NCBI GenBank assembly: GCA_964619305.1
Contig: CAZUDW010000001.1
Location: 14,356-78,355, forward strand
Source of the DNA: an uncultured Flavobacteriales bacterium
Lineage (GTDB): Bacteria > Bacteroidota > Bacteroidia > Flavobacteriales_H > CAZUDW01
Length of the DNA stretch: 64,000 nt
Direction: 5' to 3'
In this document: positions 6,987 to 47,232 of the stretch, in pieces
Layout: each line of letters opens with the position of its first letter
Numbering within the stretch: the first letter of the stretch is position 1
The notes under the pieces: generated by a model
Told to the model about the DNA's origin: nothing
The model's database searches: none
What the model saw: only the letters and a program-made list of their open reading frames with translations
Position numbers and translations under genes: made by a program

Positions 6987-8306
6987 TTAATCAATTTTTC
7001 GTTTATAAAACCACTGATCAAATTTATGAGGTGTAAAAGTAAACCCAAAGTTTAAATTCACAAACCGTTCTAATATAATGCCTTCTTTGTCTTCTCCTCT
7101 CTTCCCTGTTTCAAATCCGATATTGATACTGGATCCATGAGATTGAGCTTTTATCAATGGGATACCCAGTCCAAAACTTATGCCATACTCTGTGAGATGC
7201 TTATCTTGTACGAGCAACCTGGTTGTAGCATACCTGAAACCTCCACGATACATCAGTGTTTTAAAAAACTTTGTCACTGCCTGCTGGTCAGGTTGAATCT
7301 GCAATCCCGTTGAAAACTGCTGGCTTGAAGCAAGACCCATATTCTGATCTGAAATCGAAAATTGTGACCAGTCTTTTTTATAATAATCAAACCCAATCAC
7401 CCATCTCTTCCCGATGTAAATTCCCATCCCCAAACCATAAGATAATGGATTGAATATGGAAATATCATTGGTATCATATTGTACTGTGTCTTTGAAGGTC
7501 TCGAAATTTGTTTGCCCTGTATAACTGCGGGAAAGTAGTGTGTGATGACTTTTCAAACTATCTGAGAATGCAAAGCAGCCTCCTGCAGATACAAGTAATT
7601 TTGAACTGAATCTTTGAAAATACAATAAACCTGCTTCTAAATTAACATCACTAATATGCATAGAATTACTTACCAGTGTATTAAAAGCATAGGAAGCATC
7701 CTTGGGTAAAACCCTCTGGATCTTATATATGGAACCAAATAGATAAGAGACATTCAGACCCAGGGATAATTTTATACCCGATGTGTCATTCAGGTTATTG
7801 ATGATGTTCAATCCATTCCCAAAGTTAAATCGATTTATTTCTCCCGAACCATTATATTGATATATTACTTCTCCAAAATTCATCACTGAATCCATATTTT
7901 GAATTGAGTAGCCCATTTTTGTCCAAGGCATTAATCCGAATGCCATACCCCATCTGTTTTTTTTCCTTATCACGGGAAATCCAAATGAGAAGTTCCTGAT
8001 ATATGTATTTTGTTCACTTTGTTTAAATGTATCATTAATGAATGTTATTGAATGTGTGGTGATATCTGTTATAAAAACAGGTTTTTTAAGCATGGTGAAA
8101 GATGCTGGATTTGCAGGGTTAATAAATATAGGTGTTGCCAGTCCATATTTCACATCTCCCATGCTGTTCTGTTCTGTGAAGCCAAGACTCTCCGGATCGC
8201 CAATTCCTAAAATAGAATAAGGCGAACTAGTGGTTAGCTGAGCCATCAGAACGGAATTGAACATGATAATAAATAAGATAAAAAATAATTTACTTTTTTG
8301 AGGCAT
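6987..8306 (-). CDS. Outer-membrane beta-barrel protein (putative porin-like), hypothetical
   Basis: 439 aa with a signal peptide. Alternating hydrophobic beta-strand pattern, Gly/aromatic-rich, ending in an aromatic-rich C-terminus. Confidence 0.55.
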   Translation of the reverse strand: MPQKSKLFFILFIIMFNSVLMAQLTTSSPYSILGIGDPESLGFTEQNSMGDVKYGLATPIFINPANPASFTMLKKPVFITDITTHSITFINDTFKQSEQNTYIRNFSFGFPVIRKKNRWGMAFGLMPWTKMGYSIQNMDSVMNFGEVIYQYNGSGEINRFNFGNGLNIINNLNDTSGIKLSLGLNVSYLFGSIYKIQRVLPKDASYAFNTLVSNSMHISDVNLEAGLLYFQRFSSKLLVSAGGCFAFSDSLKSHHTLLSRSYTGQTNFETFKDTVQYDTNDISIFNPLSYGLGMGIYIGKRWVIGFDYYKKDWSQFSISDQNMGLASSQQFSTGLQIQPDQQAVTKFFKTLMYRGGFRYATTRLLVQDKHLTEYGISFGLGIPLIKAQSHGSSINIGFETGKRGEDKEGIILERFVNLNFGFTFTPHKFDQWFYKRKID

Positions 8307-9376: not shown

Positions 9377-10147
9377 ATGATCTTTACAGATTCTCACACT
9401 CACTTGTATCTTCCCGAATTTGATGATGACCGCCACATGGTGATTCATCGTGCAATAAAGGCAGGTATTGAACGCATGTTCTTACCCAACATAGACAGCC
9501 ATACAATTAGAATGCTACATTCTATGTGCAGTTTAAAACCTTCCAGTCTTTTTCCTATGATGGGATTGCATCCTTGCTCTGTTGATGAAAATTATCTGAA
9601 GGAGCTTAGTCTGGTCGAAAAATTGCTTACTGAGAAACGCTATGCCGCTGTGGGAGAGATAGGCATTGATCTCTATTGGGATATTAAATTTAAAAAAGAG
9701 CAGATAGAAGCATTTACTTCACAGGTTAAACTGGCAAAAAATCATAACCTTGCCGTTGTCATCCATGTGCGTAATGCATTTGATGATGTTTTTGAGGTAA
9801 TTGACCTACTAAACGATGATACTCTTAAAGGAATTTTTCACTGTTTTAACGGAAATGAGCAGCAGGCAATGAAAGCCCTTTCGTATGGAGGATTCAAGTT
9901 GGGCATTGGCGGCATGATCACTTTTAAAAACTCAACTCTTGCTGGTGTTGTAGAAAAGATAAAACTGGAGGATATAGTGCTTGAGACCGATGCACCATAC
10001 CTGACACCGGCACCACACCGTGGTAAAAGAAATGAAAGTGTTTACCTTGTGCAAATCGCAAAGAAGATAGCTCAGATCAAACGTTGCTCCTTACAGGCAG
10101 TAGCGGATGTAACTACCTCCAACAGCCGGGAGGTTTTCGGGATGTAA
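9377..10147 (+). CDS. tatD: TatD family metal-dependent hydrolase (DNase)
   Basis: 256 aa. N-terminal FTDSHTHL and conserved His/Asp/Glu metal ligands. Confidence 0.9.
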   Translation: MIFTDSHTHLYLPEFDDDRHMVIHRAIKAGIERMFLPNIDSHTIRMLHSMCSLKPSSLFPMMGLHPCSVDENYLKELSLVEKLLTEKRYAAVGEIGIDLYWDIKFKKEQIEAFTSQVKLAKNHNLAVVIHVRNAFDDVFEVIDLLNDDTLKGIFHCFNGNEQQAMKALSYGGFKLGIGGMITFKNSTLAGVVEKIKLEDIVLETDAPYLTPAPHRGKRNESVYLVQIAKKIAQIKRCSLQAVADVTTSNSREVFGM

Positions 10148-10413
10148 AGCATAAAATCAAAAAGGAATTATGGAATTTTTTCTGAGAAATTGTATCTCGC
10201 GGTAGCAGAATCGGGACTCTCCACGAACCATGTTGTAGGGAACACGAATCACGTTGGACTACCCTGGATTTAAATTTCCCTGCCCTAAAGGACAGGGCTT
10301 TGAGAATAAATTTTAACCAGTCTAAGGGCCATCATTATACAAATCTATCAAGTTAAACATCCATATAATGAATTTATCACAATCTTTGCGTTAGGTTAGT
10401 TAATAATTGAGTT

Positions 10414-12555
10414 ATGTCTAAATATAAAGGGAGGAAAAAGAAGAAAATACTCAAAATAAAAAAACAGGCAACAGAACAAGATGCAGTTGGAACGAATGGT
10501 AATGTTGTTTCTTCTGATTCATCCTCTTACCTGAGAAAACCGAAAATATTGTTGTTTTTGCTCGGCTTTGTTCTTTTTGCTAACACCATACCTTTTGAAC
10601 ATGCACTAGATGACAAACTTGCAATTACACACAACCAATTTACTAAAAAAGGCATCAAAGGGATACCGGATATATGCTCAAACGATCTTTTGGTTGGTTT
10701 TTATGGTAAAAAGCGCAACCTCCTTGCCGGCAGCAGATATCGCCCACTTTCGTTGGTAACATTTGCTATTGAATGGAGTTTATTTGGCCCCTCACCGGGT
10801 ATCAAAGACCCTGTCCTGATCGAATCCAAACTTGCCACCCTTGCACATCTGAGCCATTTTATCAACTCTTTGCTGTATGGGCTGACGGGAATAGTCCTTT
10901 TCCTTGTACTTATGCAGCTTTTCCCTGATGAAAAAGATAAAGCATGGTACTTCTCCGTACCTTTTATTGCTTCAGTACTTTATTTAACGCACCCACTCCA
11001 CACGGAAGTTGTGGCTAACATTAAAAGCCGTGATGAGTTGATGAGTGTGTTGGGTGCTCTTGCAACATTGTTTTATACAATGAAATATCTTGCTACAAAA
11101 AACAATAAGAACCTGTGGTTTGCAGCTATTCTGTTTATACTCAGTTTGTTTGCAAAAGAAACAGCCATCACTTTCCTTGGAATTATCCCATTGGCGATCT
11201 ATTTTTTCACAAAACATTCTATCAAGGAAAATTTAATTGCATGCTTACCTCTTGGATTTGCTGCTATTATTTATGTAAGTATTCGTTATGCTGTGGTGGG
11301 TTCGTCACAATTACACCCTGTACCAGAATTACTTAACGATCCCTACCTTTATGCTACGACAAGTGAAAAAATCGCCACCATTTTTTACACTATGGGCATC
11401 TACCTCAAACTACTGCTGTTCCCCCACCCTTTGACCCATGATTACTATCCATGGCATCCGGTCTTGCATGGCAGTTTCACATGGGGACATTTCCCTTACT
11501 TGAACTGGTCATCACCTGCTGTAGTAATCTCCTTTCTCCTCTATTTGATACTCTTCATAACAGGAATTGCCGGTATACGCAAAAAGAAACTGCTTTCTTT
11601 TTGCATATTACAGTTTATGATCTCTTTTCTTTTATTTTCAAATCTCTTCTTCGCTATCGGCACTTTTATGAATGAACGATTTATGTACCTGCCTTCATTG
11701 GGTTATTGTCTCTTTCTTGGATGGATCATAGGGGTCAAACTGCCTAAGTTGAATAAATCCATAAAATTAGCAGGTGCTGTATTCTTAGTGCTTGCGCTGG
11801 CTTTTTCAATCAAAACAGTGACCCGAAATGCTGCATGGAGAAACGATTTTACCCTGGCCACTACAGATGTGTTGACATCTGTCAACAGCACTAAGGTGAA
11901 TATGTCAGCCGGGCTTGCTTTGGTACACCAGGTGGAAAACAACCCGGAAATTGCAGGGAAAACCAAAATACTTGACAAAGCAATTTCATACCTCAATCAT
12001 TCTATTCAGTTATACCCTAATTATATACAATCTCTGGTTATATTAGGAAGTGCCTATTTTTTAAAAGACAATTTTGAGAAAGCCTATATATATCTGAAAC
12101 AGGCGCTTAAAGTAAATTTCAAGTTCAATGATGCACGAAAGAATATGTACAGGCTGGGTTTGCAATGTGAAGAAAAAGGACGAAACACGCTTGCAGTTCA
12201 ATGTTACAACGAAGTGCTGAAATATTATCCAGAGGATACAGAAGTGCTGGGTGCTCTCGGCAAAGTATATGCCCGTGGAATGAACCAGCCTGATAAGGCT
12301 CTGCAATATCTGGAAAAAGCTTATGAATTGGATCCGAATAATACAGATATCATTCAGAAAATTGGTGTTGTCTATGCCACTTCGGGCAAAACATCCGAAG
12401 CAATAGAAATGTTTAAAAAAGGCCTTGCAATCAATTCAAACAATGCCCATATCATTATGAATATTGGGATTGCATATAAAAGCATCGGTGATGATTCACT
12501 GGGACAGCAGTATCTGGATAGGGCATTTCAAATTGATCCAAGTTTAAAACAATAA
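10414..12555 (+). CDS. TMTC-like multi-pass membrane protein (DUF1736, GT-C-like) with C-terminal TPR repeats
   Basis: 713 aa. About 11 TM segments with FxxDDxxxIxxN, YRPL and HPxHTEVV motifs typical of the TMTC/DUF1736 family, then at least 6 TPR repeats. Paralogous to the CDS at 44315..46276. Confidence 0.75.
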   Translation: MSKYKGRKKKKILKIKKQATEQDAVGTNGNVVSSDSSSYLRKPKILLFLLGFVLFANTIPFEHALDDKLAITHNQFTKKGIKGIPDICSNDLLVGFYGKKRNLLAGSRYRPLSLVTFAIEWSLFGPSPGIKDPVLIESKLATLAHLSHFINSLLYGLTGIVLFLVLMQLFPDEKDKAWYFSVPFIASVLYLTHPLHTEVVANIKSRDELMSVLGALATLFYTMKYLATKNNKNLWFAAILFILSLFAKETAITFLGIIPLAIYFFTKHSIKENLIACLPLGFAAIIYVSIRYAVVGSSQLHPVPELLNDPYLYATTSEKIATIFYTMGIYLKLLLFPHPLTHDYYPWHPVLHGSFTWGHFPYLNWSSPAVVISFLLYLILFITGIAGIRKKKLLSFCILQFMISFLLFSNLFFAIGTFMNERFMYLPSLGYCLFLGWIIGVKLPKLNKSIKLAGAVFLVLALAFSIKTVTRNAAWRNDFTLATTDVLTSVNSTKVNMSAGLALVHQVENNPEIAGKTKILDKAISYLNHSIQLYPNYIQSLVILGSAYFLKDNFEKAYIYLKQALKVNFKFNDARKNMYRLGLQCEEKGRNTLAVQCYNEVLKYYPEDTEVLGALGKVYARGMNQPDKALQYLEKAYELDPNNTDIIQKIGVVYATSGKTSEAIEMFKKGLAINSNNAHIIMNIGIAYKSIGDDSLGQQYLDRAFQIDPSLKQ

Positions 12556-12624
12556 TAGATTTTGTTTTGTTAATACAATTTTATTTACTTTGGCTGCTCG
12601 TTTTTTGAGAGGGACAACCACCAG

Positions 12625-12712
12625 GGAGAGGTGGCCGAGAGGCTTAAGGCGCACGCTTGGAAAGCGTGTATCCGCCAAAAGCGGATCGGGGGTTCGAATC
12701 CCTCCCTCTCCG
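12625..12712 (+). tRNA. tRNA-Ser (anticodon GGA), class II with long variable arm
   Basis: Acceptor GGAGAGG/CCTCTCC, anticodon stem CACGC/GCGTG with loop TTGGAAA, long variable arm TATCCGCCAAAAGCGGATC, T-arm GGGGGTTCGAATCCCTC. Confidence 0.9.
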
Positions 12713-12766
12713 CAAAAGAGTTTATCGTTAATTAATAATATTGTTGAATAAATTTAAAAAGATGCT

Positions 12767-13612
12767 ATGAAGAAAATAATCACATTGTTTGCTATCACGG
12801 GTTTGATCTCTGTTGGGACAACAGGCAGTCTGTGTGCCCAAAACAAGGACACAACTGCAGGAACAGAAGTAACTGACAGCAACACAACTGAAACAGCACC
12901 CTTGGAAGAACCTACTGTTGAAAAAACAGATGTTGCGACAGAAACGACTGACACTGCTATGGATGAAGACCGTTCATTCACCCAGGTAGTAAAAGACAAG
13001 TTCATCGAAGGTGGCCCGGGTTTTATGGCTTTCATTTTGATCTGCCTGATTTTTGGTCTAGCGATTTGTATAGAAAGAATCATATATCTCAATATGGCTT
13101 CTACAAACACTAAAAAACTACTTGATAATGTAGAAAATAGCCTGAAATCCGGAGGTATTGATGCAGCAATGGAAGTATGCCGCAATACAAAAGGCCCTGT
13201 AGCAAGTATTTTCTACCAAGGACTGAGCAGGGCTGATACCGGTATAGAAATGGTTGAAAAATCGGTGGAGACTTACGGAAGTGTACAAATGGGTTTGCTC
13301 GAGCGTGGTTTATCCTGGATATCTTTATTTATAGCTTTAGCACCTATGCTCGGATTCTTTGGAACTGTTATTGGTATGATCAGCGCTTTTGATGCCATCG
13401 CACAGGCAAACAACATTTCTCCGGGTATTGTTGCAGGTGGTATTGGTGTTGCGCTGATAACAACCGTCTCCGGTTTGCTGGTAGCAATGGTTTTGCAAGT
13501 CTTTTACAACTATATTGTTGCTAAAATCGACAGCATTGTGAATGACATGGAAGATTCTTCTATCTCATTGGTTGATTTACTCCTTAAACATAAAATCAAA
13601 ACCCATAACTGA
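12767..13612 (+). CDS. exbB: MotA/TolQ/ExbB proton-channel family protein (ExbB) with long acidic Thr/Glu-rich periplasmic N-extension
   Basis: 281 aa. Signal peptide, a low-complexity T/E/D-rich stretch, then three TM helices with the conserved ExbB C-terminal core. Confidence 0.85.
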   Translation: MKKIITLFAITGLISVGTTGSLCAQNKDTTAGTEVTDSNTTETAPLEEPTVEKTDVATETTDTAMDEDRSFTQVVKDKFIEGGPGFMAFILICLIFGLAICIERIIYLNMASTNTKKLLDNVENSLKSGGIDAAMEVCRNTKGPVASIFYQGLSRADTGIEMVEKSVETYGSVQMGLLERGLSWISLFIALAPMLGFFGTVIGMISAFDAIAQANNISPGIVAGGIGVALITTVSGLLVAMVLQVFYNYIVAKIDSIVNDMEDSSISLVDLLLKHKIKTHN

Positions 13613-13617
13613 TTCTT

Positions 13618-14007
13618 ATGAAAAAACTTTCTCAATATTCGATGTATGTCTTGTTGATTTGGGGAGTAATTGCATTCTTCCTATCTATTTTTGGTGATAA
13701 CCATGAACCGCTGATCAATTCGATGTATGTGTATTTTAGTATCTGCGTTATAGTTACTCTGATTGCAACGGTTGTTGGAATGATTAATAAACCAGGTAGC
13801 CTGAAAGGGGCAATAATAGGTATTGCCGGTTTTATCTTCATTGGTATCATCGCATACATACTTGCTGATGATAGTGTATATGAAGGTCAGGAAATCACAG
13901 CTTCCACATCAAAATGGGTGGGGATGGGATTATATATGTTTTACATATTGCTTTTTCTCTCTGTTGCTGTAATTGCGTATACAGGTATTGCAAAATATTT
14001 TAGATAA
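13618..14007 (+). CDS. Small 4-TM membrane protein encoded between exbB and exbD (hypothetical)
   Basis: 129 aa, entirely hydrophobic helices. Only 5 nt separate it from exbB, so it is likely cotranscribed. Confidence 0.5.
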   Translation: MKKLSQYSMYVLLIWGVIAFFLSIFGDNHEPLINSMYVYFSICVIVTLIATVVGMINKPGSLKGAIIGIAGFIFIGIIAYILADDSVYEGQEITASTSKWVGMGLYMFYILLFLSVAVIAYTGIAKYFR

Positions 14008-14015
14008 AATCATAG

Positions 14016-14693
14016 ATGGCGCTTGACAAAAGAACACCACCTGAAATCAATGCCAGTTCAATGGCAGATATTGCATTTCTATTGCTTGTGTTTTTCCTGG
14101 TGACAACTACTATGGACAGCCCACTTGGCATCGCACGTCTTTTACCTCCACCACAGGACATTAACATTCAACCACCGAAGTTTCTGGAACGCAACGTTTT
14201 CACCGTTCTTGCCAACAAAAATGACCAGTTACTTGTAGAAAATGGATTGATGGAAATAACACAACTGAAAGCTGCAGCCAAAGAGTTTATTGAGAACCCT
14301 AATAATAAAGAATCTCTACCAGAGAAAAAACTGATCACAAAAGAACTATGTAAGAAGAACATCGCCATCCTTTCATCCTCTTCTTCTGAAGATACAGTTG
14401 TTGGAAATTTGAAATCCTGGCAGAGAAAACTCGATGCAGTTGAAACCGTTGGGCAGTATTGGGAAACTAAAGGTGTGATCTCTTTACAAAACGACAGAGG
14501 TACTTCATATAAGTTGTATATACAGGTGCAGAATGAACTGGCCGCTGCTTATCATGAACTGAGGGATGAATTTGCTAAAGAAAAATTCGGAAAAACTTTC
14601 GATCAACTTGATAAAACCCAACACAGAATCGTTCAAACAGTGGTCCCTCAAAAGATATCAGAAGCGGAACCCGTAAATTACGGAGGACAATAA
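14016..14693 (+). CDS. exbD: Biopolymer transport protein ExbD/TolR
   Basis: 225 aa. N-terminal ExbD signature …INASSMADIAFLLLVFFLVTT. Confidence 0.8.
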   Translation: MALDKRTPPEINASSMADIAFLLLVFFLVTTTMDSPLGIARLLPPPQDINIQPPKFLERNVFTVLANKNDQLLVENGLMEITQLKAAAKEFIENPNNKESLPEKKLITKELCKKNIAILSSSSSEDTVVGNLKSWQRKLDAVETVGQYWETKGVISLQNDRGTSYKLYIQVQNELAAAYHELRDEFAKEKFGKTFDQLDKTQHRIVQTVVPQKISEAEPVNYGGQ

Positions 14694-14695
14694 CC

Positions 14696-15160
14696 ATGGG
14701 AAAGTTTGGAAGAAAAGGAAAAAACAACAGTCCGGGTATATCTACTGCTTCTTTACCTGATATCGTATTCATGTTGTTATTTTTCTTTATGGTTTCTACC
14801 GTGCTTAGGGAAGTCGATCTGAAGGTAAAAGTAGATCAACCAGAAGCAACAGAAGTTCAAAAAATCGAGAACAAGTCTTTGGTTGATTACATCTATATTG
14901 GCACTCCATTTGAAGAAGAAAAATATGGCACAGAACCCCGAATTCAACTTAATGATGATTTTGCAACAATTAATGATATTCAACCATTTATTGTAACTGG
15001 TCGTGAAAACAGACCGGAAGCAGTTGCTAACAAAGTCACAACATCACTTAAAGTTGATAAAGAAATAAAAATGGGTATCGTAACTGATGTCAAACAACAG
15101 TTAAGGAAAATTTACGCCCTTAAGGTAAATTATTCCACACATTTGGCAGCAGCTAAATAA
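14696..15160 (+). CDS. exbD: Biopolymer transport protein ExbD/TolR (second copy)
   Basis: 154 aa. …LPDIVFMLLFFFMVST ExbD N-terminal TM motif, 2 nt after the first exbD. Confidence 0.8.
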   Translation: MGKFGRKGKNNSPGISTASLPDIVFMLLFFFMVSTVLREVDLKVKVDQPEATEVQKIENKSLVDYIYIGTPFEEEKYGTEPRIQLNDDFATINDIQPFIVTGRENRPEAVANKVTTSLKVDKEIKMGIVTDVKQQLRKIYALKVNYSTHLAAAK

Positions 15161-37227: not shown

Positions 37228-40200
37228 CTAACGGACTAAAGACACACTACCTTTTTTTATCGTTTCTTCTTTGTTGTCAAGTGAAAATTTCACATACCAT
37301 ACATAAACTCCTGCATTGACAGGTTTGCCATTATAAGTGCCCTCCCATCCATCTCCAACATCATGTGATTCAAACATCTTATTGCCCCAACGATCATAGA
37401 TAACATATTCTATATTGCTGATATTTTTTCCTCTCACATATAAAATATCGTTGTGCCCATCCCCGTTGGGAGAGAAGATATTTGGTATGAAGAAATCTGA
37501 ATTATCTTCAACAACAATGGTAACACTATCTGTTGCACTGCAACCACTGTCACCAATAACAGTAAGATAATATGTAGTTGTTTCCTCAGGAGTTGCAACC
37601 GGATTCTGGCAATCTGAGCATGATAAAGATGTAGCAGGTGTCCACAACCAGAAAGGACCACCTTCTCCAATCAGTTGCACTGATTCACCCGCACTAATGG
37701 TGGTGTCCGGCTTTGCATCAACTTCAATTGCTGAGGGTTGGTTGATTGTTATACTTTGTGTCATGGTGCATCCATTAGCATCAGTCAAAGTCAATTGATA
37801 AACTCCTGCTGACAGACTGTCCTGATTGGCCGATGTACCACCATTGCTCCAGTTATATAAATATGGTGATATTCCACCGTTTACGGAAATGACAGCACTA
37901 CCATCTGATTTTCCATAGCAACTTGCATCAGTTCCTGATAAAGTCAATACTATTGCCGGTGGTTCGGCAATATTGGTAGAATCAGTTGTTGTACATCCAT
38001 TATTATCAGTAATTGTCACATAATAGGTTCCTGCTAAAAGACCGGTTACAGTAGAATCTATAGCTGAATTGCTCCAGAAATACTGATAAGGACTGCTTCC
38101 ACCTGAAGGGTTTACAGATGCTGTTCCATCCGAGTTTCCTGCGCATAATACATCCGTTGAAGAAACTGAAGAAATAAGCATAGCAGGTTCATTTATCATC
38201 AATGTATCAACACCGATACATCCGTTGCTATCAGTAACCGTTAAATAATATAAACCTGGAGATAAGCCGGTGAGCACTGGCACGCTATCCCCTGTGCTCC
38301 AGGAATAAGAGTAAGGACTTGTCCCTCCGTTTACACTAACTAAAACCTGCCCATCAGCATAACCAAAACAACTTACATCCGAACTGTTGAACAAAACAGA
38401 CACAACAGATGGGCCAACGAGTGTAACAGTATCAAATAAAGTACATCCATTGTTATCGGTGATCGTAATATAATATATCCCTGCTGATAATCCGGTTGCA
38501 GAGGAATCCGTTTGTCCGCTGGACCAATTATAATTGTATGGAGAAGTACCTCCTGAAGGTGTTATTACTATTGTGCCGTTGTTGTCTCCGTTGCAAAGAG
38601 GACTTACCGTATCTAAAACAGCAGTCAATGCAGCAGGTTCCGTAATGGTAATACTGTCAGTATTTGTACAACCGAATACATCTGTTACAGTAACATAATA
38701 AGTGCCCGCTGAAAGACCGGTTGCCAATTGTGTAGTTTGATTACCTATACTCCATGCATATTGAAACATGGCAGAATCAATACAGCTGTTTGGTGATGAA
38801 GGCATTGCGAGAACTGTTCCATCATTTCCTCCATTGCAGTTTACCATGGTTGCAGAAAAAATAATCTGTGGTGTATTGCAAGCAAGACAATATTTATCCA
38901 TCCATATATCAAGACCTGCTGATCCAGGTCTGGGATCTTCCCATGCCATATATGCACAGCTATCAATGGAAACGATGTGTGGAAAATTCTGATTCCCGTT
39001 TTCTAGACATACGGGAAGATAGCTTGTATACGTGATCCCATCACAGTTAAAATGTCTCGTATAAATATCATCTCCATTACCTCCACCGTCTTTTCTCCAA
39101 ACAGCAAAGAAACCACCGGTTCTATCAGGAGTAATGTCTGCAAAGCGATCATTATCAACACTATAGCTAATACGCACATGTCCACCGCTGATATTCCACA
39201 AAAGATTCCCTGTTGAATCTACCCTTTGCGCTGAGACATCGTTATCACCACTCTGATATCCACTTTCACCACAAACAATTATGCCACCTCTATAGTCAGG
39301 AATGGGAACAGGACGATCTGCTTCATCATTACCATTCAGCTTATATTCTGAAAGTAAAAATATTCCTGTAGTACCGCTACCAAATCCAGAAGTCAGCGTA
39401 CCATTAAGATAATATCTTGCACCATAGATGGCAAAAGGACCACTTGGGAAACTAGCATCTGTCCACACGAAATACACGTCATTATTACCAGTAAAAACAA
39501 CTTTGGTTTCATCCTGCACAGCTGAATTGTCGCAAATCAACTTTCCGTCTGTTTGCCAGAGTGATGTGCCATTGCCATCAAACCTTTCAGCATACACATC
39601 CCTGTTGGGGCCTCTGGCATCTGACCACACGTAAATCGCACCACCTAACCCATCCACTGCCATATCCAGATCATCCTGTGCTCCATTCAAACCGCACACG
39701 GAAATTCCATTTGCTGTCCATAAAGGATTTCCATTAACACCCATTCTCTGGGTATAAATATCATAGTTGCCACCACGGTTGTCTTCCCATCCAATTATAC
39801 AACCACCTGTGGAATCAGATATTATTTTAGGATTTCGCTGTATACCTGTTGCAGTACAGACAGCATTTCCATTCAGTGTCCACAATGCATTACCACCTGC
39901 ATCGATATGCTGAGCATAAATATCCCATGTTGCACCCCTTTTATCAGACCAAACAACAAAAACTCCTCCGCTGCCATCAGTACACATATCCGGTGTTTCC
40001 TGCGTTCCGGTTTCATTACAAACTGGTATTCCATTGAGTGTCCACATGGGAGCGAAAAGAATATCCATGCTCTGCATATAAATATCCTGGGAACTATTTC
40101 TGTTATCTTCCCATACCATCAGAATATGTGTCTCACTGTCATCGGTAATCATCCTGATCGTCTTTTGAGAACCGGAGATATTATTTACAACAGGGTAATT

Positions 40201-40272
40201 CTGAGCTTCTGCAGATTTTATCATGAAAAGCACAAAAAGCAATAACGAAATAACTAATTTCAATTGTGTCAT
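37228..40272 (-). CDS. Large T9SS cargo protein: N-terminal unassigned ~56-aa repeats, central SprB repeats, C-terminal type-B (gliding-motility-associated) CTD
   Basis: 1014 aa with a signal peptide. At least 5 repeats with a W[ES]DxRxxxxDIYxQ…G…W…NG…VC core, then ~6 SprB-type repeats (C.G..DG…GG.SPY.Y.WS.G…TGL.AG.YY.T.TD.NGC), then a C-terminal domain (FIPNIFSPNGDGHNDIL…YDRWGNK) matching the T9SS type-B sorting domain. Confidence 0.85.
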   Translation of the reverse strand: MTQLKLVISLLLFVLFMIKSAEAQNYPVVNNISGSQKTIRMITDDSETHILMVWEDNRNSSQDIYMQSMDILFAPMWTLNGIPVCNETGTQETPDMCTDGSGGVFVVWSDKRGATWDIYAQHIDAGGNALWTLNGNAVCTATGIQRNPKIISDSTGGCIIGWEDNRGGNYDIYTQRMGVNGNPLWTANGISVCGLNGAQDDLDMAVDGLGGAIYVWSDARGPNRDVYAERFDGNGTSLWQTDGKLICDNSAVQDETKVVFTGNNDVYFVWTDASFPSGPFAIYGARYYLNGTLTSGFGSGTTGIFLLSEYKLNGNDEADRPVPIPDYRGGIIVCGESGYQSGDNDVSAQRVDSTGNLLWNISGGHVRISYSVDNDRFADITPDRTGGFFAVWRKDGGGNGDDIYTRHFNCDGITYTSYLPVCLENGNQNFPHIVSIDSCAYMAWEDPRPGSAGLDIWMDKYCLACNTPQIIFSATMVNCNGGNDGTVLAMPSSPNSCIDSAMFQYAWSIGNQTTQLATGLSAGTYYVTVTDVFGCTNTDSITITEPAALTAVLDTVSPLCNGDNNGTIVITPSGGTSPYNYNWSSGQTDSSATGLSAGIYYITITDNNGCTLFDTVTLVGPSVVSVLFNSSDVSCFGYADGQVLVSVNGGTSPYSYSWSTGDSVPVLTGLSPGLYYLTVTDSNGCIGVDTLMINEPAMLISSVSSTDVLCAGNSDGTASVNPSGGSSPYQYFWSNSAIDSTVTGLLAGTYYVTITDNNGCTTTDSTNIAEPPAIVLTLSGTDASCYGKSDGSAVISVNGGISPYLYNWSNGGTSANQDSLSAGVYQLTLTDANGCTMTQSITINQPSAIEVDAKPDTTISAGESVQLIGEGGPFWLWTPATSLSCSDCQNPVATPEETTTYYLTVIGDSGCSATDSVTIVVEDNSDFFIPNIFSPNGDGHNDILYVRGKNISNIEYVIYDRWGNKMFESHDVGDGWEGTYNGKPVNAGVYVWYVKFSLDNKEETIKKGSVSLVR

Positions 40273-42584: not shown

Positions 42585-44318
42585 TTATAAATCATTTTTA
42601 TCTACTATAAATTTCCCTATCACCAGGTAATCAATATCAGCTCTCAGGAAACTATCCATTGAGTCAAAAGGTGAGCAAACGATTGGTTCACCTTTGATAT
42701 TAAAAGAGGTATTGATCAGGCAGGAAATACCGGTTTCCCGTTTAAATGCCATAAGAAGTTCCCACATTTCAGGATTCTCCCTTTTATTTACTGTTTGTAC
42801 TCTGACCGTGTTATCAATGTGGGTAATACCCGGCAATTGTTTTCTGTATTCCTTATTTACAAAATATACTTTCAACATATACGGAGATGGATAAGCGGAA
42901 CTAAAATATTTGCCACAATCTTCCTCCAGAACAATCGCAGCAAAAGGTCTGAATCCTTCTCTGAATTTCACTCTTGCATTGAGTACATCTTTGGCATCTT
43001 GAAGTATTGGATTAGCCAATATACTCCTGTTTCCTAATGCACGTGGTCCGAATTCTAACCTTCCCTGATGCCAGCCAACGATGTTTCCTGCAGCAAGTTG
43101 ATTAGCAATAAATTGATATTGGTTGTCCATCTTCCGATAAGGGACACCCGCTTTTATTAATTCATTTTCGCAATCTTTATCAGTATAACCCGGGCCTAAA
43201 AAGGCAGAATTCATTTTATAAACCCTATTATTATTCAAATAATGGCGGTAAAGTAACATTGCACTCCCCAGCGAAGTGCCCGAATCACCGGCAGCAGGTT
43301 GAATGAAAATGTTATCGAACAAACCACTGCTTACAAGAAGGCCATTGGCAACCGAATTCAAAGCTACTCCTCCCGCCATGCATAGATTTTTCAATGATGT
43401 TTTTTCCCTGAGATGTGTTGCTATATGGAAAATAATATCTTCGGTAAGATGTTGAACTGCTGCAGCAATATTAAGTTCATGTTCATTCCAACCGCCTTGT
43501 TCTTTTCTTGATTGTCCAAACAATCGTTCAAATTTACTGCTTACACCTGTCTTACGTGTATAATGATAGGTAAAATAGCTCATGTCCAGACTAAATGTAC
43601 CTTTCTTTTTTAATACAACTAATTTTTTCATTTGATTATATTCCTCCGCATTTTTATCTCCGTATGATGCAAGACCCATGAGCTTACCCGGCCCCGTAAT
43701 CAATTGGAACCCAAGATGCCTGGAGATTGCCTGGTACATGGCACCAATTGAATGAGGTGTTTTAGTTTCACTTATTTTTTTTATTCTGTTGCCTTCACCT
43801 TTCGCCATTAGAGCAGTGGCCCATTCTCCAGCCCCATCAATTGTTAATATTGCTGCCTGATCGAATCCGGAAGGGTAGAAAGCACTTGCAGCATGGCACA
43901 AATGATGTTCTAATAGATGAAATTTGAAATGGCTTTTCTTTTTGCCCCCAAATAATTCATTTATAGTTTTAGGGAGCTTTCTCATATCGCTTAAATAATT
44001 TAACATCCCAAGATTCTCTTCGACTGTAAAGTTTCTCTGTTCTTTTAATAACAATGGTACTTTATTCCAGTATTTAAACAGAAAGTTGGGAATATGTAAA
44101 TATGATATAGATGGTTTCCAGGAGAATGTTATATGATCCACATCGGCTAATTTCAGATCCTCATGATCCAAACAAGCTTTAATTGAATGAACTGGCAGTC
44201 CGCCATAATGTTTTTTACGGTTAAGTCGTTCTTCTTCTACAGCAAATAACACATTCCCATCTGAAACGATAGTTGCAGCAGCATCATGCCCGAAACAGTT
44301 GAACCCCAATACGATCAT
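42585..44318 (-). CDS. Carbamoyltransferase (NodU/CmcH family)
   Basis: 577 aa. N-terminal ASKHA-fold signature GFNCFGHDAAATIV…AVEEERLNRKKH, central HHLCHAASAF, and a C-terminal YrdC-like region. Confidence 0.85.
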   Translation of the reverse strand: MIVLGFNCFGHDAAATIVSDGNVLFAVEEERLNRKKHYGGLPVHSIKACLDHEDLKLADVDHITFSWKPSISYLHIPNFLFKYWNKVPLLLKEQRNFTVEENLGMLNYLSDMRKLPKTINELFGGKKKSHFKFHLLEHHLCHAASAFYPSGFDQAAILTIDGAGEWATALMAKGEGNRIKKISETKTPHSIGAMYQAISRHLGFQLITGPGKLMGLASYGDKNAEEYNQMKKLVVLKKKGTFSLDMSYFTYHYTRKTGVSSKFERLFGQSRKEQGGWNEHELNIAAAVQHLTEDIIFHIATHLREKTSLKNLCMAGGVALNSVANGLLVSSGLFDNIFIQPAAGDSGTSLGSAMLLYRHYLNNNRVYKMNSAFLGPGYTDKDCENELIKAGVPYRKMDNQYQFIANQLAAGNIVGWHQGRLEFGPRALGNRSILANPILQDAKDVLNARVKFREGFRPFAAIVLEEDCGKYFSSAYPSPYMLKVYFVNKEYRKQLPGITHIDNTVRVQTVNKRENPEMWELLMAFKRETGISCLINTSFNIKGEPIVCSPFDSMDSFLRADIDYLVIGKFIVDKNDL

Positions 44319-46276
44319 TGTCCTTTCATTTCTTGCTCTGCATTTTTAGCTGCAACGGCAATATTAAGATTGTTAGTTGCCAAATCGTAATCCGGCTTTA
44401 TTTTAAGCGCCTGATTGCAAGCTTCTATTGCCAGATCCCATTGTTGCAGTTCATTATATGCGGAACAAATATTATTATATGCCAATGCATAATCGGGTTT
44501 TAGCTCAAGAGACTTCTTTGCGGCTGTGATACATTCTTTGAATTTCCCATTATTATAATAGGCAAGACTGAGATTCAGATAAGTTTCAGGTGAAGGATCG
44601 GTATGAACTTTTTCCAGTGCTAACTCTACACCGTTGTCAGCACGATAGCTTTTCATACTGTCTAAAGTATTCAAAAGAGAAGAGGCAAGAATATGTCCGG
44701 GACTTATTTCCAAACACTTATTAAGTAATGATTTAGCTTCTTCCATCCTGCCTTGTTCAGAAAGCCATTTTGCATAGAAATAATATGCTTCAGGATTCAT
44801 GAAACCATATTGTATTCCATTTTTGAAATAATATTCTGCCTCATCGTTTCTCTTCATTGCCCCCAGCAGAACACCCATATTAATATGAATATACGAATAA
44901 TATGGCCACAATTTTAAAGCTGTTTTAAAATATTTCAGAGATTCCTCATATTTACCTTTTGACATTAAGGCATTTCCATAATTCATTAATCCCCTGGCAT
45001 TTCCCGGAGATTTGACTGCCACATCATGCCATAAAAGTTCTCCACTACTCCATATATGACATCTTTTACGAGTCCCGTAAGCTTGCAAAACGAATATCAG
45101 GCAAAGTGAAGAAATAAACACCGATACAAGATGCTTTTTCTTAATCCATGAATAGAAATGAGCGCCTAAACAACCTAGTGACATTGCCAACCCAATATAG
45201 GGAAAAAAGGTGCGATGATCATTTAAAACTTCTCCCAAAGGGAATATACTTGAAGTTGGTAAAAGGGTTATTAAAAACCAAAAAATCCCATATGAAAAAG
45301 GCCTCCATGTTTTTTTTTTCAAACCCAAAAAGGCCAAAAACAACATGGTTCCAATGAATATTATACCGATAAAAACTCTGTCATCATAATAATTGGTAAT
45401 GGCTTTCCAATCAGTATCTGCAACAAGATTAACAGGTAATATAAAATTATTGAAATAATGCACAATAACAAATGGCTGGGTTATCAAATAATCCATCCTC
45501 GAGATATTTGTGGGTGTCCATGTGTCAGGTGTCATCTGTCTGGAAAGGATAAACAAACCTAAAGCAATGGCCATTCCCGGCAAAACGGCAAGCAGTGCTT
45601 TGCTAAAGTTCTTCCAAGCTTTTTTGTATTTCGTGCCGGTATAGTCTGTTTTATTAAAAATCAATTCATATACAAAAATCAACGGTACCAGCATTATCGC
45701 AGGTTCTTTTACAAAAAAGCCAATTATCATTGGCAATAAATACAATTGATATTGTCTTTTTTTGGGATAATACAAGTAAATATTTATCCCGATAATTACC
45801 ATTAAAGTTGAGAAAGAATCCGAACGAGCAATAATATAATTGATCGTTTCTGCATTGGAAGGATGTAAACCATAAAATGCTGCTGCAAACAGGGCAATCC
45901 ATTTGTTTGACAGTCTTTCCTGAACAAGATTAAATATCTTTCTAAACAGGAAAAACAACATAATCAATAAAAGAATATATGAACAGAAAACAGATATGTG
46001 AAACTGCAAAGGATTTGCTCCATTTGCTATCCAATAATCTATTGCATTTAATGTTGTCAGGCCTGGTCTGTAAGCCTGGTTTGCAGGAAGTGAACTTGTT
46101 GTAGTTGCATCTTTAAAAAAAAGAGGAATATTCTTTAAATCCCTAATGTATTTGTTGGTCACTATTGTATGTTCATCATCGAATTGAAATGGATTATGAA
46201 AATGACCTGAATAGGAAGCGTATAAAAGCAACAATAGAAGACTTGCTGATATATTCCATATTACCCCTTTTTTCAT
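44315..46276 (-). CDS. TMTC-like multi-pass membrane protein (DUF1736, GT-C-like) with C-terminal TPR repeats
   Basis: 653 aa. Multi-TM N-half with FQFDDEHTIVTN, YRPG and HPSNAETI motifs, and a C-terminal TPR array. Its stop overlaps the carbamoyltransferase start (ATGA, 44315-44318). Confidence 0.75.
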   Translation of the reverse strand: MKKGVIWNISASLLLLLLYASYSGHFHNPFQFDDEHTIVTNKYIRDLKNIPLFFKDATTTSSLPANQAYRPGLTTLNAIDYWIANGANPLQFHISVFCSYILLLIMLFFLFRKIFNLVQERLSNKWIALFAAAFYGLHPSNAETINYIIARSDSFSTLMVIIGINIYLYYPKKRQYQLYLLPMIIGFFVKEPAIMLVPLIFVYELIFNKTDYTGTKYKKAWKNFSKALLAVLPGMAIALGLFILSRQMTPDTWTPTNISRMDYLITQPFVIVHYFNNFILPVNLVADTDWKAITNYYDDRVFIGIIFIGTMLFLAFLGLKKKTWRPFSYGIFWFLITLLPTSSIFPLGEVLNDHRTFFPYIGLAMSLGCLGAHFYSWIKKKHLVSVFISSLCLIFVLQAYGTRKRCHIWSSGELLWHDVAVKSPGNARGLMNYGNALMSKGKYEESLKYFKTALKLWPYYSYIHINMGVLLGAMKRNDEAEYYFKNGIQYGFMNPEAYYFYAKWLSEQGRMEEAKSLLNKCLEISPGHILASSLLNTLDSMKSYRADNGVELALEKVHTDPSPETYLNLSLAYYNNGKFKECITAAKKSLELKPDYALAYNNICSAYNELQQWDLAIEACNQALKIKPDYDLATNNLNIAVAAKNAEQEMKGQ

Positions 46277-46377
46277 TACCTGTTAATTTGTTCGTCAAAG
46301 ATAGAAAAACGATCTGGTGAACTTAAATTGCATTTTATTCCATTGATGAATTCTACATAACTTTGGCAATTTAAATA

Positions 46378-47232
46378 ATGGAAAATAATAATACGTCTGC
46401 TGAAGAAACCCAAATGACCTTCCTGGAACATTTGGAAGAGTTAAGATGGCATTTAATCAGGTCTGCAGCAGCGATTATGATCTTAGCAATCATAGCATTT
46501 CTTTCAAAAGGGTTTGTTTTTGATTCAGTCGTTTTTGCTCCAATGCAAGAGCAGTTTATTACATTCAAAGTATTGTGCCTTCTTTCTCATAAACTTCATT
46601 TACTTATTCCCGCCCTGGTAAGCGATGATTTGATTTGTATTGGAAAAGCCATTCCCGGATTGCAGAATATCAGCATGGCAGGGCAATTTGCAACTCATAT
46701 CATGGTTTCTATCATTACAGGATTTATAATCGCCTTTCCTTATGTTTTCTGGGAAATGTGGAGATTCATACAGCCAGCATTGAAACGAAATGAACAAAAG
46801 CAGACCAAAGGAGTTGTGCTGTCTTCTTCATTTTTATTCATTATAGGCGCTTTATTCGGTTATTTCATTATAGTACCTCTTTCTGTGAATTTTCTTGCAA
46901 CATATAGTGTAAGTGAGTCTGTAAAGACTATCCCAACTTTATCAAGCTATATAACAACTGTAACTATGATCACTTTGGCATGTGCAATCATTTTTCAACT
47001 ACCTTTACTTGTTGTGTTCCTGAGTAAATGGGGGCTAATTTCGCCCACTTTTCTAAAAAAATTCAGAAAACATGCTATTGTAGTTGCTCTAATCGTTTCT
47101 GCTATTATAACACCTCCTGATGTATTCAGTCAGATTCTTGTTGGATTACCATTGTTGTTATTATATGAAGTTAGCATATGGCTTTCCGCAACTGTAATGA
47201 GAAAAGAGAAAAAACGATTAAAGACTAATTGA
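46378..47232 (+). CDS. tatC: Twin-arginine translocase subunit TatC
   Basis: 284 aa. FLEHLEELRWHL N-terminus and six TM helices. Confidence 0.9.
   Translation: MENNNTSAEETQMTFLEHLEELRWHLIRSAAAIMILAIIAFLSKGFVFDSVVFAPMQEQFITFKVLCLLSHKLHLLIPALVSDDLICIGKAIPGLQNISMAGQFATHIMVSIITGFIIAFPYVFWEMWRFIQPALKRNEQKQTKGVVLSSSFLFIIGALFGYFIIVPLSVNFLATYSVSESVKTIPTLSSYITTVTMITLACAIIFQLPLLVVFLSKWGLISPTFLKKFRKHAIVVALIVSAIITPPDVFSQILVGLPLLLLYEVSIWLSATVMRKEKKRLKTN

Follow-up and report, generated by a model that had tools for sequence, protein, structure and literature searches.

A predicted TMTC-like GT-C glycosyltransferase and an O-carbamoyltransferase form an operon that recurs in Bacteroidota

We analysed two adjacent genes in a 64-kb stretch of DNA from an uncultured Flavobacteriales bacterium (contig CAZUDW010000001.1; the whole stretch is called the window below), and found that they form an operon, which recurs as a gene pair in related genomes well beyond chance. 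The first gene encodes a predicted inner-membrane glycosyltransferase of the GT-C fold with a C-terminal arm of tetratricopeptide repeats (TPR), and the second an O-carbamoyltransferase of the NodU/CmcH class. For bacterial relatives of the human TMTC O-mannosyltransferases no donor, acceptor or phenotype is known in the literature that we searched, which also yielded nothing on bacterial TMTC-like proteins, on carbamoylated Bacteroidota glycans, or on a carbamoyltransferase associated with a GT-C enzyme. The locus gives a large GT-C family a recurrent enzymatic partner and, in relatives, a complete donor-synthesis cassette.

Results

Two overlapping genes

The features of the locus are as follows (positions in the window).

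46276..44315, minus strand: GT-C/TPR gene, 653 aa, from the open reading frame (ORF) and its translation; predicted inner-membrane GT-C glycosyltransferase of a divergent TMTC-like family
44999..46276, minus strand: membrane domain of the GT-C/TPR protein (residues 1-426), 11 helices, predicted GT-C fold
44318..44998, minus strand: TPR domain (residues 427-653), about 6 repeats and a capping helix, predicted periplasmic; from Pfam, the model and Foldseek
44315..44318, minus strand: ATGA stop/start overlap of the two genes, from the sequence
44318..42585, minus strand: carbamoyltransferase gene, 577 aa, class III NodU/CmcH/TobZ type; from Pfam and PDB relatives
43257..44312, minus strand: Kae1-like transfer domain (residues 3-354 of the carbamoyltransferase), from alignment to GdmN
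42597..43106, minus strand: YrdC-like domain (residues 405-574 of the carbamoyltransferase), Pfam Carbam_trans_C, E 4e-67
46296..46303, minus strand: TATCTTTG, a candidate -7 promoter box lying 20 nt before the start codon of the GT-C/TPR gene

An earlier, sequence-only reading had described two long ORFs with a 4-nt overlap and deduced an operon with probable stoichiometric co-expression. Both ORFs are found exactly at the coordinates it gave, on the minus strand, which it had not named. As can be seen from the plus strand, which reads TCAT at 44315-44318 (ATGA on the coding strand), four nucleotides are indeed shared by the stop codon of the GT-C/TPR gene (TGA, 44317-44315) and the start codon of the carbamoyltransferase gene (ATG, 44318-44316). 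This is the commonest type of overlap in bacterial operons and is unremarkable by itself. Both ORFs are real genes: a search with the GT-C profile gave 3,107 cluster representatives at E≤1e-30, and of 8,000 candidates scored in the carbamoyltransferase search, 7,999 were proteins with E≤1e-50.

The spacer of 101 nt between the GT-C/TPR gene and the divergent tatC gene holds the candidate promoter box, which fits the TAnnTTTG consensus of Bacteroidetes promoters. A scan for terminators and for sigma-70 promoters (not informative in this phylum) was uninformative, with 28 promoter-like sites against 20.4 expected and no terminator between the two genes or behind them. The GC content across the locus is even (0.31-0.43), with no island signature, and identical proteins are encoded on one JGI metagenome contig and one ENA contig in the same gene order: tatC, then the divergent GT-C gene, the carbamoyltransferase gene, yicC and gmk. 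An origin in Bacteroidota is indicated by SprB/CHU_C type IX secretion cargo, by DUF5686 and by the closest homologues.

A GT-C fold followed by a TPR arm

We analysed the fold of the first protein in two parts. Pfam TPR_1/2/8/12 cover residues 427-650 (TPR_2 with E 7e-25), so that the TPR repeats do follow an N-terminal polytopic membrane domain, as the sequence-only reading had it. Residues 1-426 matched nothing in Pfam, and PDB sequence searches with the membrane domain were empty, both with the single sequence and with the family profile. The AlphaFold model of the full-length protein, built with 42 homologues (pLDDT 89.7), has 11 long helices followed by 13 TPR helices. Because Foldseek returned only TPR proteins for this model (OGT, SPY and consensus TPR proteins), residues 1-426 were modelled separately (pLDDT 84.9) for the fold search. 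The 12 best PDB matches to the membrane domain were then AglB, STT3, ArnT and PglB structures, with probability 1.0 and TM scores of 0.41-0.50 on the query; all are GT-C enzymes, and no other family is among them. The GT-C nature of the protein is thus evident from fold comparison only, given the empty sequence searches. The modelled fold shows the product of the first gene to be a predicted inner-membrane GT-C glycosyltransferase, whose 11-helix domain has the catalytic DD and donor-binding motifs of the TMTC/ArnT/PMT type.

All three motifs noted earlier are present, namely FQFDD (residue 30), YRP (69) and HPSNAE (138, with H138...E143), and the membrane domain also has E349...D353-H354-R355...Y360. 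The acidic pair D33-D34 lies right after helix 1, in the first outer loop, and is kept in 88 of 89 relatives. Loops rich in lysine and arginine (residues 112-124, 208-222, 319-325 and 377-381) fit an N-in topology. Judging from the sequence together with the 11-helix model, the motifs and the TPR arm would face the periplasm.

Seven motifs surround the donor and the metal in TMTC proteins: DD, SHKSYRP, RxD, KE(T/Q)xxT, DW, PxxP and ERxxY (PMC7801869). Their counterparts here are D33-D34, Y69-R70-P71, R151-S-D153, K190-E191, D289-W290, P340 and H354-R355...Y360, in the same order and with similar spacing, and these residues are conserved in 71-89 of the 89 relatives (most of them in at least 83). 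Motifs M1, M3 and M5 are identical to the published ones, M2 is reduced to YRP, M4 to KE and M6 to P340, and M7 reads HR....Y. The SHKS part of M2 is replaced here by (P)ANQ(A). The protein therefore resembles TMTCs in its architecture of 11 helices and TPR and in the order of the motifs that it keeps in whole or in part, and departs from them at SHKS (M2), at the T/Q and T positions in M4 and at E in M7.

What the protein shares with the eukaryotic TMTC1-4 (CAZy GT105) is an N-terminal GT-C domain of 11 helices with TPR behind it, predicted to face away from the cytoplasm, together with the DD of the first outer loop and the YRP, RxD, KE and DW motifs. In TMTCs the donor is a lipid monophosphate and a single sugar is transferred (PMC11292533), and the GT-C/TPR protein would presumably act in this way too. 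Unlike TMTCs, the protein is bacterial, resides (as predicted) in the inner membrane, has no match to PF08409 and belongs to a family linked to a carbamoyltransferase and to GacI/GacJ-like genes.

The DUF1736 label belongs to a paralogue

The sequence-only reading had assigned the protein to DUF1736. However, PF08409 (TMTC_DUF1736) did not match it even at E≤10, gave sub-threshold matches in only 3 of 19 family members (best E 0.018), and was a precomputed match in none of the 120 best homologues. By the threshold of that model, the label does not apply to this protein; the canonical member in the window is a second gene:

10414..12555, plus strand: distant GT-C/TPR paralogue, 713 aa, canonical DUF1736-type; 22% identity, E 4e-15

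The family profile matches the paralogue over the whole membrane domain (E 1.4e-15). It had been said to share the motifs of the first protein. The paralogue is real and does have a DD, YRP (109) and HPLHTE (193), but it is distant, and a literal FxxDD is absent. Its KETAIT (248) and ERFMY (421) are near-canonical. Among its 120 best homologues, PF08409 and/or PF13231 was present in about 40, and the names 'DUF1736 domain-containing protein' and 'glycosyltransferase family 39 protein' occur. The paralogue is not linked to a carbamoyltransferase. On the failed PF08409 test and the canonical character of the paralogue, the GT-C/TPR gene is assigned, by its sequence, to a divergent, large sister family of the recognised bacterial DUF1736/TMTC-like proteins; its homologues are 42-54% identical across Bacteroidota.

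A class III carbamoyltransferase predicted to be cytoplasmic

The assignment of the second protein to the NodU/CmcH class of O-carbamoyltransferases proved correct. Both Pfam domains are present at full length (Carbam_trans_N, E 3e-70, besides Carbam_trans_C), and its solved relatives are 7xb6 (E 5e-91), NovN, GdmN and TobZ. It is not NodU proper, as it scores about 175 bits against the NCBIfam equivalog NF041651, for which the cut-off is 1000. Residues H11, H138, H142, D161 and D344 align with GdmN H27, H133, H137, D156 and D333, of which H27 is the general base and the other four are the iron ligands (PMC9633730). The GPRALGNRS (424) and NTSFN (536) motifs of the carbamoyl-AMP-forming domain, common to 7xb6, NovN and GdmN, are intact. 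The alignment shows an active site that is complete as far as sequence can tell. The enzyme thus has the Kae1-like and YrdC-like domains, the catalytic histidine and the 2His/2Asp metal site of TobZ, NodU, CmcH, NovN and GdmN; in contrast to these, it lies outside any secondary-metabolite or nodulation cluster and its partner is a GT-C enzyme.

Class III enzymes make carbamoyl-AMP from ATP and carbamoyl phosphate and then carbamoylate a hydroxyl, and those that lack a dimerisation domain at the C-terminus mostly have polar acceptors, for example aminoglycosides (PMC9633730). This domain is absent from the window enzyme. We could detect neither a signal peptide nor a membrane helix in it (the maximum 19-residue Kyte-Doolittle mean was 1.46). 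Given its class and the lack of export signals, the enzyme would have to act in the cytoplasm. The sequence-only reading had placed carbamoylation at the periplasmic face, which does not agree with an enzyme that has no export signal and needs ATP and carbamoyl phosphate. For the same reasons, carbamoylation would precede the GT-C step.

The pair is recurrent but facultative

We compared the surroundings of both genes in related genomes. In a forward test, 80 genome loci were found via the GT-C protein; a carbamoyltransferase gene lay immediately downstream, on the same strand, in 22 of them; when only the 71 loci whose flank is 1.8 kb or longer are counted, the figure is 21. These 22 loci are labelled Flavobacteriales, Chitinophagales/Chitinophagaceae, Cytophagaceae and Emticicia, and their proteins are 57-66% (carbamoyltransferases) and 42-52% (GT-C proteins) identical to those of the window. 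A metagenome scan with a single carbamoyltransferase sequence gave one locus; the reverse test used ten exact-protein look-ups, of carbamoyltransferase homologues (59-67% identity) taken from a similarity list and chosen by the length of their contigs, with their neighbours ignored. Seven of these ten orthologues had a member of the GT-C family (profile E≤1e-160) directly upstream. The pair thus consists of conserved neighbours, as the sequence-only reading expected, but the association is facultative.

The genes around the pair vary widely among loci, while the order, GT-C gene then carbamoyltransferase gene, and the strand are kept; only the adjacency is conserved, therefore, and not a wider block. 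The stop-to-start gaps ranged from -4 to +275 nt among 29 pairs, with 6 nt or less in 15 and overlaps of -4 or -1 in 7. Operon linkage is thus general, but the overlap is not conserved, and the proposed stoichiometric coupling finds no support. According to PMC9976891, Bacteroidia ribosomes do not use Shine-Dalgarno pairing, and the overlap therefore says little about stoichiometry.

In a neighbour-joining tree the carbamoyltransferase-linked GT-C proteins were scattered within one of two major clades, which rules out that they form a single clade of their own. Loci of the same synteny (ABC, DUF5686, CMD, tatC, GT-C) occur both with and without the carbamoyltransferase gene. Together, these observations imply repeated loss or replacement of the carbamoyltransferase. 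As a separate observation, two or three GT-C/TPR cluster genes, mostly adjacent and in tandem or divergent, share one locus in L013, L022, L024, L031, L033, L036, L045, L049, L054, L056, L062, L063, L065, L067, L080 and L082, which points to repeated local duplication of these genes.

An apparent tailoring slot and a donor cassette in relatives

We noted that the place immediately after the GT-C gene is taken by a small number of enzyme types: besides the carbamoyltransferase (22/80 loci), a methyltransferase of cluster c10 (16/80), a short-chain dehydrogenase/reductase (SDR) of cluster c12 (9/80) or a methyltransferase of cluster c24 (4/80). Since sister lineages have a methyltransferase or an SDR instead of the carbamoyltransferase, this position appears to be an exchangeable tailoring slot.

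A 240-aa GT2 glycosyltransferase and a 115-aa DUF2304 protein are encoded in the flanks of 35 of the 80 loci. In 18 of the 80 three further genes are present as well, and all five make up a block on the opposite strand: the SDR 'epimerase', the GMC-like FAD oxidoreductase (535 aa), the 131-aa protein (without a Pfam match), DUF2304 and GT2. In L086 and L091 the whole cassette (L086:9727-13632 and L091:7727-11632) stands behind the pair, and the paired genes overlap by 4 nt in both. The only solved relatives of the GT2 above noise are dolichol-phosphate mannose synthase (DPMS), ArnC and GtrB. An oxidase/reductase pair beside a polyprenyl-phosphate sugar synthase recalls the epimerisation of a lipid-linked sugar by DprE1/DprE2-type enzymes. 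DUF2304 corresponds to the GacJ/Rv3632 family, the activators of GacI and PpgS, which are undecaprenyl-phosphate GlcNAc and GalNAc synthases; a GT-C enzyme, for example GacL, then takes over the lipid-linked sugar (bioRxiv 10.1101/180810).

One natural protein of 1038 aa, P0474, unites a GT2 domain, a GtrA/DPMS transmembrane domain (GtrA_DPMS_TM), the GT-C domain of this family and TPR; it is a Rosetta-stone link of the GT-C/TPR family to polyprenyl-monophosphate sugar synthesis. In two other long relatives, P0377 (1160 aa) and P0453 (800 aa), the N-terminus is extended by 170-490 residues that match nothing in Pfam, and the remaining long GT-C hits owe their length to extra TPR repeats.

A carbamoyltransferase homologue (59% identity) that does not stand behind a GT-C/TPR gene is found in an apparent operon in L093 (L093:5116-12896), in the order carbamoyltransferase, GT2 (316 aa), methyltransferase, a 580-aa protein, DoxX and PAP2. 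The 580-aa protein has no Pfam match, and its N-terminal part is very hydrophobic (the first 200 residues were read). This locus may represent a second kind of lipid-linked glycan system with the same tailoring enzyme.

Discussion

The above results are consistent with a periplasmic glycosylation of the GacI/J/L or ArnT kind whose sugar is carbamoylated in the cytoplasm before its transfer, a scheme to which we give an even chance of being right. A dedicated GT2 would make a polyprenyl-phosphate sugar, and the carbamoyltransferase would O-carbamoylate the sugar in the cytoplasm, with the lipid-linked donor or the nucleotide sugar that precedes it as the substrate. The tailored donor would then be flipped across the inner membrane, on the outer side of which the GT-C enzyme, using a polyprenyl-phosphate sugar as other GT-C enzymes do, would move the carbamoyl-sugar to a periplasmic protein or an envelope glycan selected by the TPR arm. 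In this pathway the sugar, the acceptor and the carbamoylation step all rest on inference. By analogy with TMTC and OGT, the acceptor could be a protein. The TPR domains of PgaA, BcsC and AlgK handle polysaccharides, so that a polysaccharide acceptor is also possible.

The scheme has two bacterial models. As in GacI/GacJ/GacL of Streptococcus pyogenes and PpgS/Rv3632 of Mycobacterium tuberculosis, relatives of the window locus co-encode a GT2, a DUF2304 activator and a GT-C enzyme, and the P0474 fusion follows the same logic. The differences are the TPR arm on the GT-C enzyme, the insertion of a cytoplasmic tailoring enzyme and, with respect to GacI/GacJ/GacL, the location of the GT2 and DUF2304 genes, which are absent from the window itself and found in related loci. 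The ArnT pathway, which brings L-Ara4N from undecaprenyl phosphate to lipid A, resembles the scheme in the ArnC-like GT2 of the relatives. In that pathway the lipid-linked sugar is tailored before flipping, through deformylation by ArnD, which provides a precedent for carbamoylation before the flip. ArnT, however, has no TPR domain, and the chemistry in the window would be O-carbamoylation.

Several observations weigh against this scheme. Three of the ten carbamoyltransferase orthologues are not beside a GT-C gene, so that the link is not obligate, and the carbamoyltransferase is dispensable in many lineages. Homologues of the GT2, DUF2304, the oxidoreductase and the SDR were absent from the 64-kb window by tblastn, and about half of the carbamoyltransferase-bearing loci also have no donor genes in their flanks. 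No fusion of a carbamoyltransferase with a GT-C protein was among the top hit lists. No position of the GT-C protein separated carbamoyltransferase-linked from methyltransferase- or SDR-linked members at 80% versus 25%, which counts against the scheme, since one would expect differences in a donor pocket that recognises the tailoring group. Finally, no precedent for a carbamoylated lipid-linked sugar was found in the literature searched.

The lack of GT-C residues that co-vary with the tailoring enzyme would be explained if the two enzymes contributed to the same envelope product in separate steps. The carbamoyltransferase would then modify a cytoplasmic precursor of the acceptor (for instance the repeat unit of an O-antigen, a capsule or an O-glycan, or a nucleotide sugar that goes into it), and the GT-C enzyme would add a different, uncarbamoylated side-branch sugar to this polymer in the periplasm. 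A tight recurrent linkage needs only a shared product and not a shared substrate, GacL-type enzymes do put plain sugars on polysaccharides, and in L093 the carbamoyltransferase gene stands in another operon of glycan type, together with genes for a GT2 and a methyltransferase. However, Wzx, Wzy and an initiating transferase are not beside the pair, either in the window or in most loci, and in the cassette-type loci the slot sits between the GT-C gene and the donor block, which fits tailoring of the donor better. We regard separate steps as unlikely, if still worth keeping in mind.

It is harder still to credit that the two genes share no pathway and stay adjacent through synteny or co-regulation of envelope and housekeeping genes, with an unrelated small molecule as the substrate of the carbamoyltransferase. 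Genes for secondary metabolites are absent from the vicinity, although the solved relatives of the enzyme do tailor antibiotics. The locus does lie among housekeeping genes (tatC, yicC, gmk and a nadD-like gene), and some syntenic loci that retain tatC and the GT-C gene have no carbamoyltransferase; the three orthologues not beside a GT-C gene point the same way. Against this, 7 of 10 is far above the roughly 1-in-thousands expected for a random neighbour, and the order and strand of the two genes persist while their flanks vary.

It is improbable that the GT-C protein is a plain protein O-mannosyltransferase on polyprenyl-phosphate mannose, like PMT and TMTC, with the carbamoyltransferase irrelevant to it: the architecture and motifs M1, M3 and M5 do equal those of TMTC, and JGI names several family members 'protein O-mannosyl-transferase' (an automatic label), but SHKS, which is set against mannose in TMTC models, is replaced, the Pfam TMTC and PMT models do not match, and the linked GT2 is accompanied by DUF2304, by an oxidoreductase and an SDR and by tailoring enzymes, which points to a modified sugar instead of plain mannose.

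We also considered the missing general O-oligosaccharyltransferase of Bacteroidota as an identity for the GT-C protein and rejected it, since GT2 and DUF2304 point to a single sugar linked to a monophosphate and not to an oligosaccharide carried on a diphosphate.

Donor carbamoylation before GT-C transfer makes a direct prediction, a monosaccharide on an envelope protein or glycan with a 43.006-Da carbamoyl group that is lost in either single mutant. If the scheme is true, O-carbamoylation would join the known bacterial ways of tailoring lipid-linked sugars, an exchangeable slot (for a carbamoyl group, a methyl group or a reduced sugar) would be a source of diversity on the cell surface of Bacteroidota, and the family would offer a tractable bacterial model for TMTC-type enzymes. 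A bolder form of it, which we think doubtful, would be a TMTC-type protein O-glycosylation of Bacteroidota, in which a single sugar on undecaprenyl phosphate is O-carbamoylated at the cytoplasmic face, flipped and put by the GT-C enzyme, guided by its TPR arm, on periplasmic or type IX-secreted proteins with Ig-like repeats. Equally doubtfully, this would be a bacterial counterpart of cadherin O-mannosylation, with the sugar methylated or reduced in sister lineages. Were it true, carbamoylation of lipid-linked sugars would be described for the first time, together with a new +43 Da protein modification on a monosaccharide.

Neighbouring genes

The tatC gene (46378-47232, plus strand) adjoins the GT-C/TPR gene on the opposite strand. 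In 26 of the 80 GT-C loci (including L011, L013, L014, L016, L021, L025-L028, L083-L085, L087 and L089) tatC is likewise encoded upstream, within the flank and on the other strand, frequently followed by a CMD-family gene, DUF5686 and an ABC ATPase. This synteny on the tatC side is kept with or without the carbamoyltransferase.

Genes for type IX secretion cargo (SprB repeats, PKD, CHU_C or Por_Secre_tail) are found near the pair, at 37228-40272 (minus strand) in the window and within a few kb in L084, L085, L086 and L088-L090. With their Ig-like repeats such proteins are candidate acceptors that transit the periplasm; type IX cargo is abundant in such genomes, and its proximity to the pair may be due to chance.

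The paralogue sits between tatD (9377-10147) and an exbB-(129-aa ORF)-exbD-exbD cluster (12767-15160), the whole region spanning 9377-15160; the 129-aa ORF (13618-14007, plus strand) between exbB and exbD has no Pfam match. Another ORF without a Pfam match (439 aa; 6987-8306, minus strand) adjoins a TPR protein and lptC.

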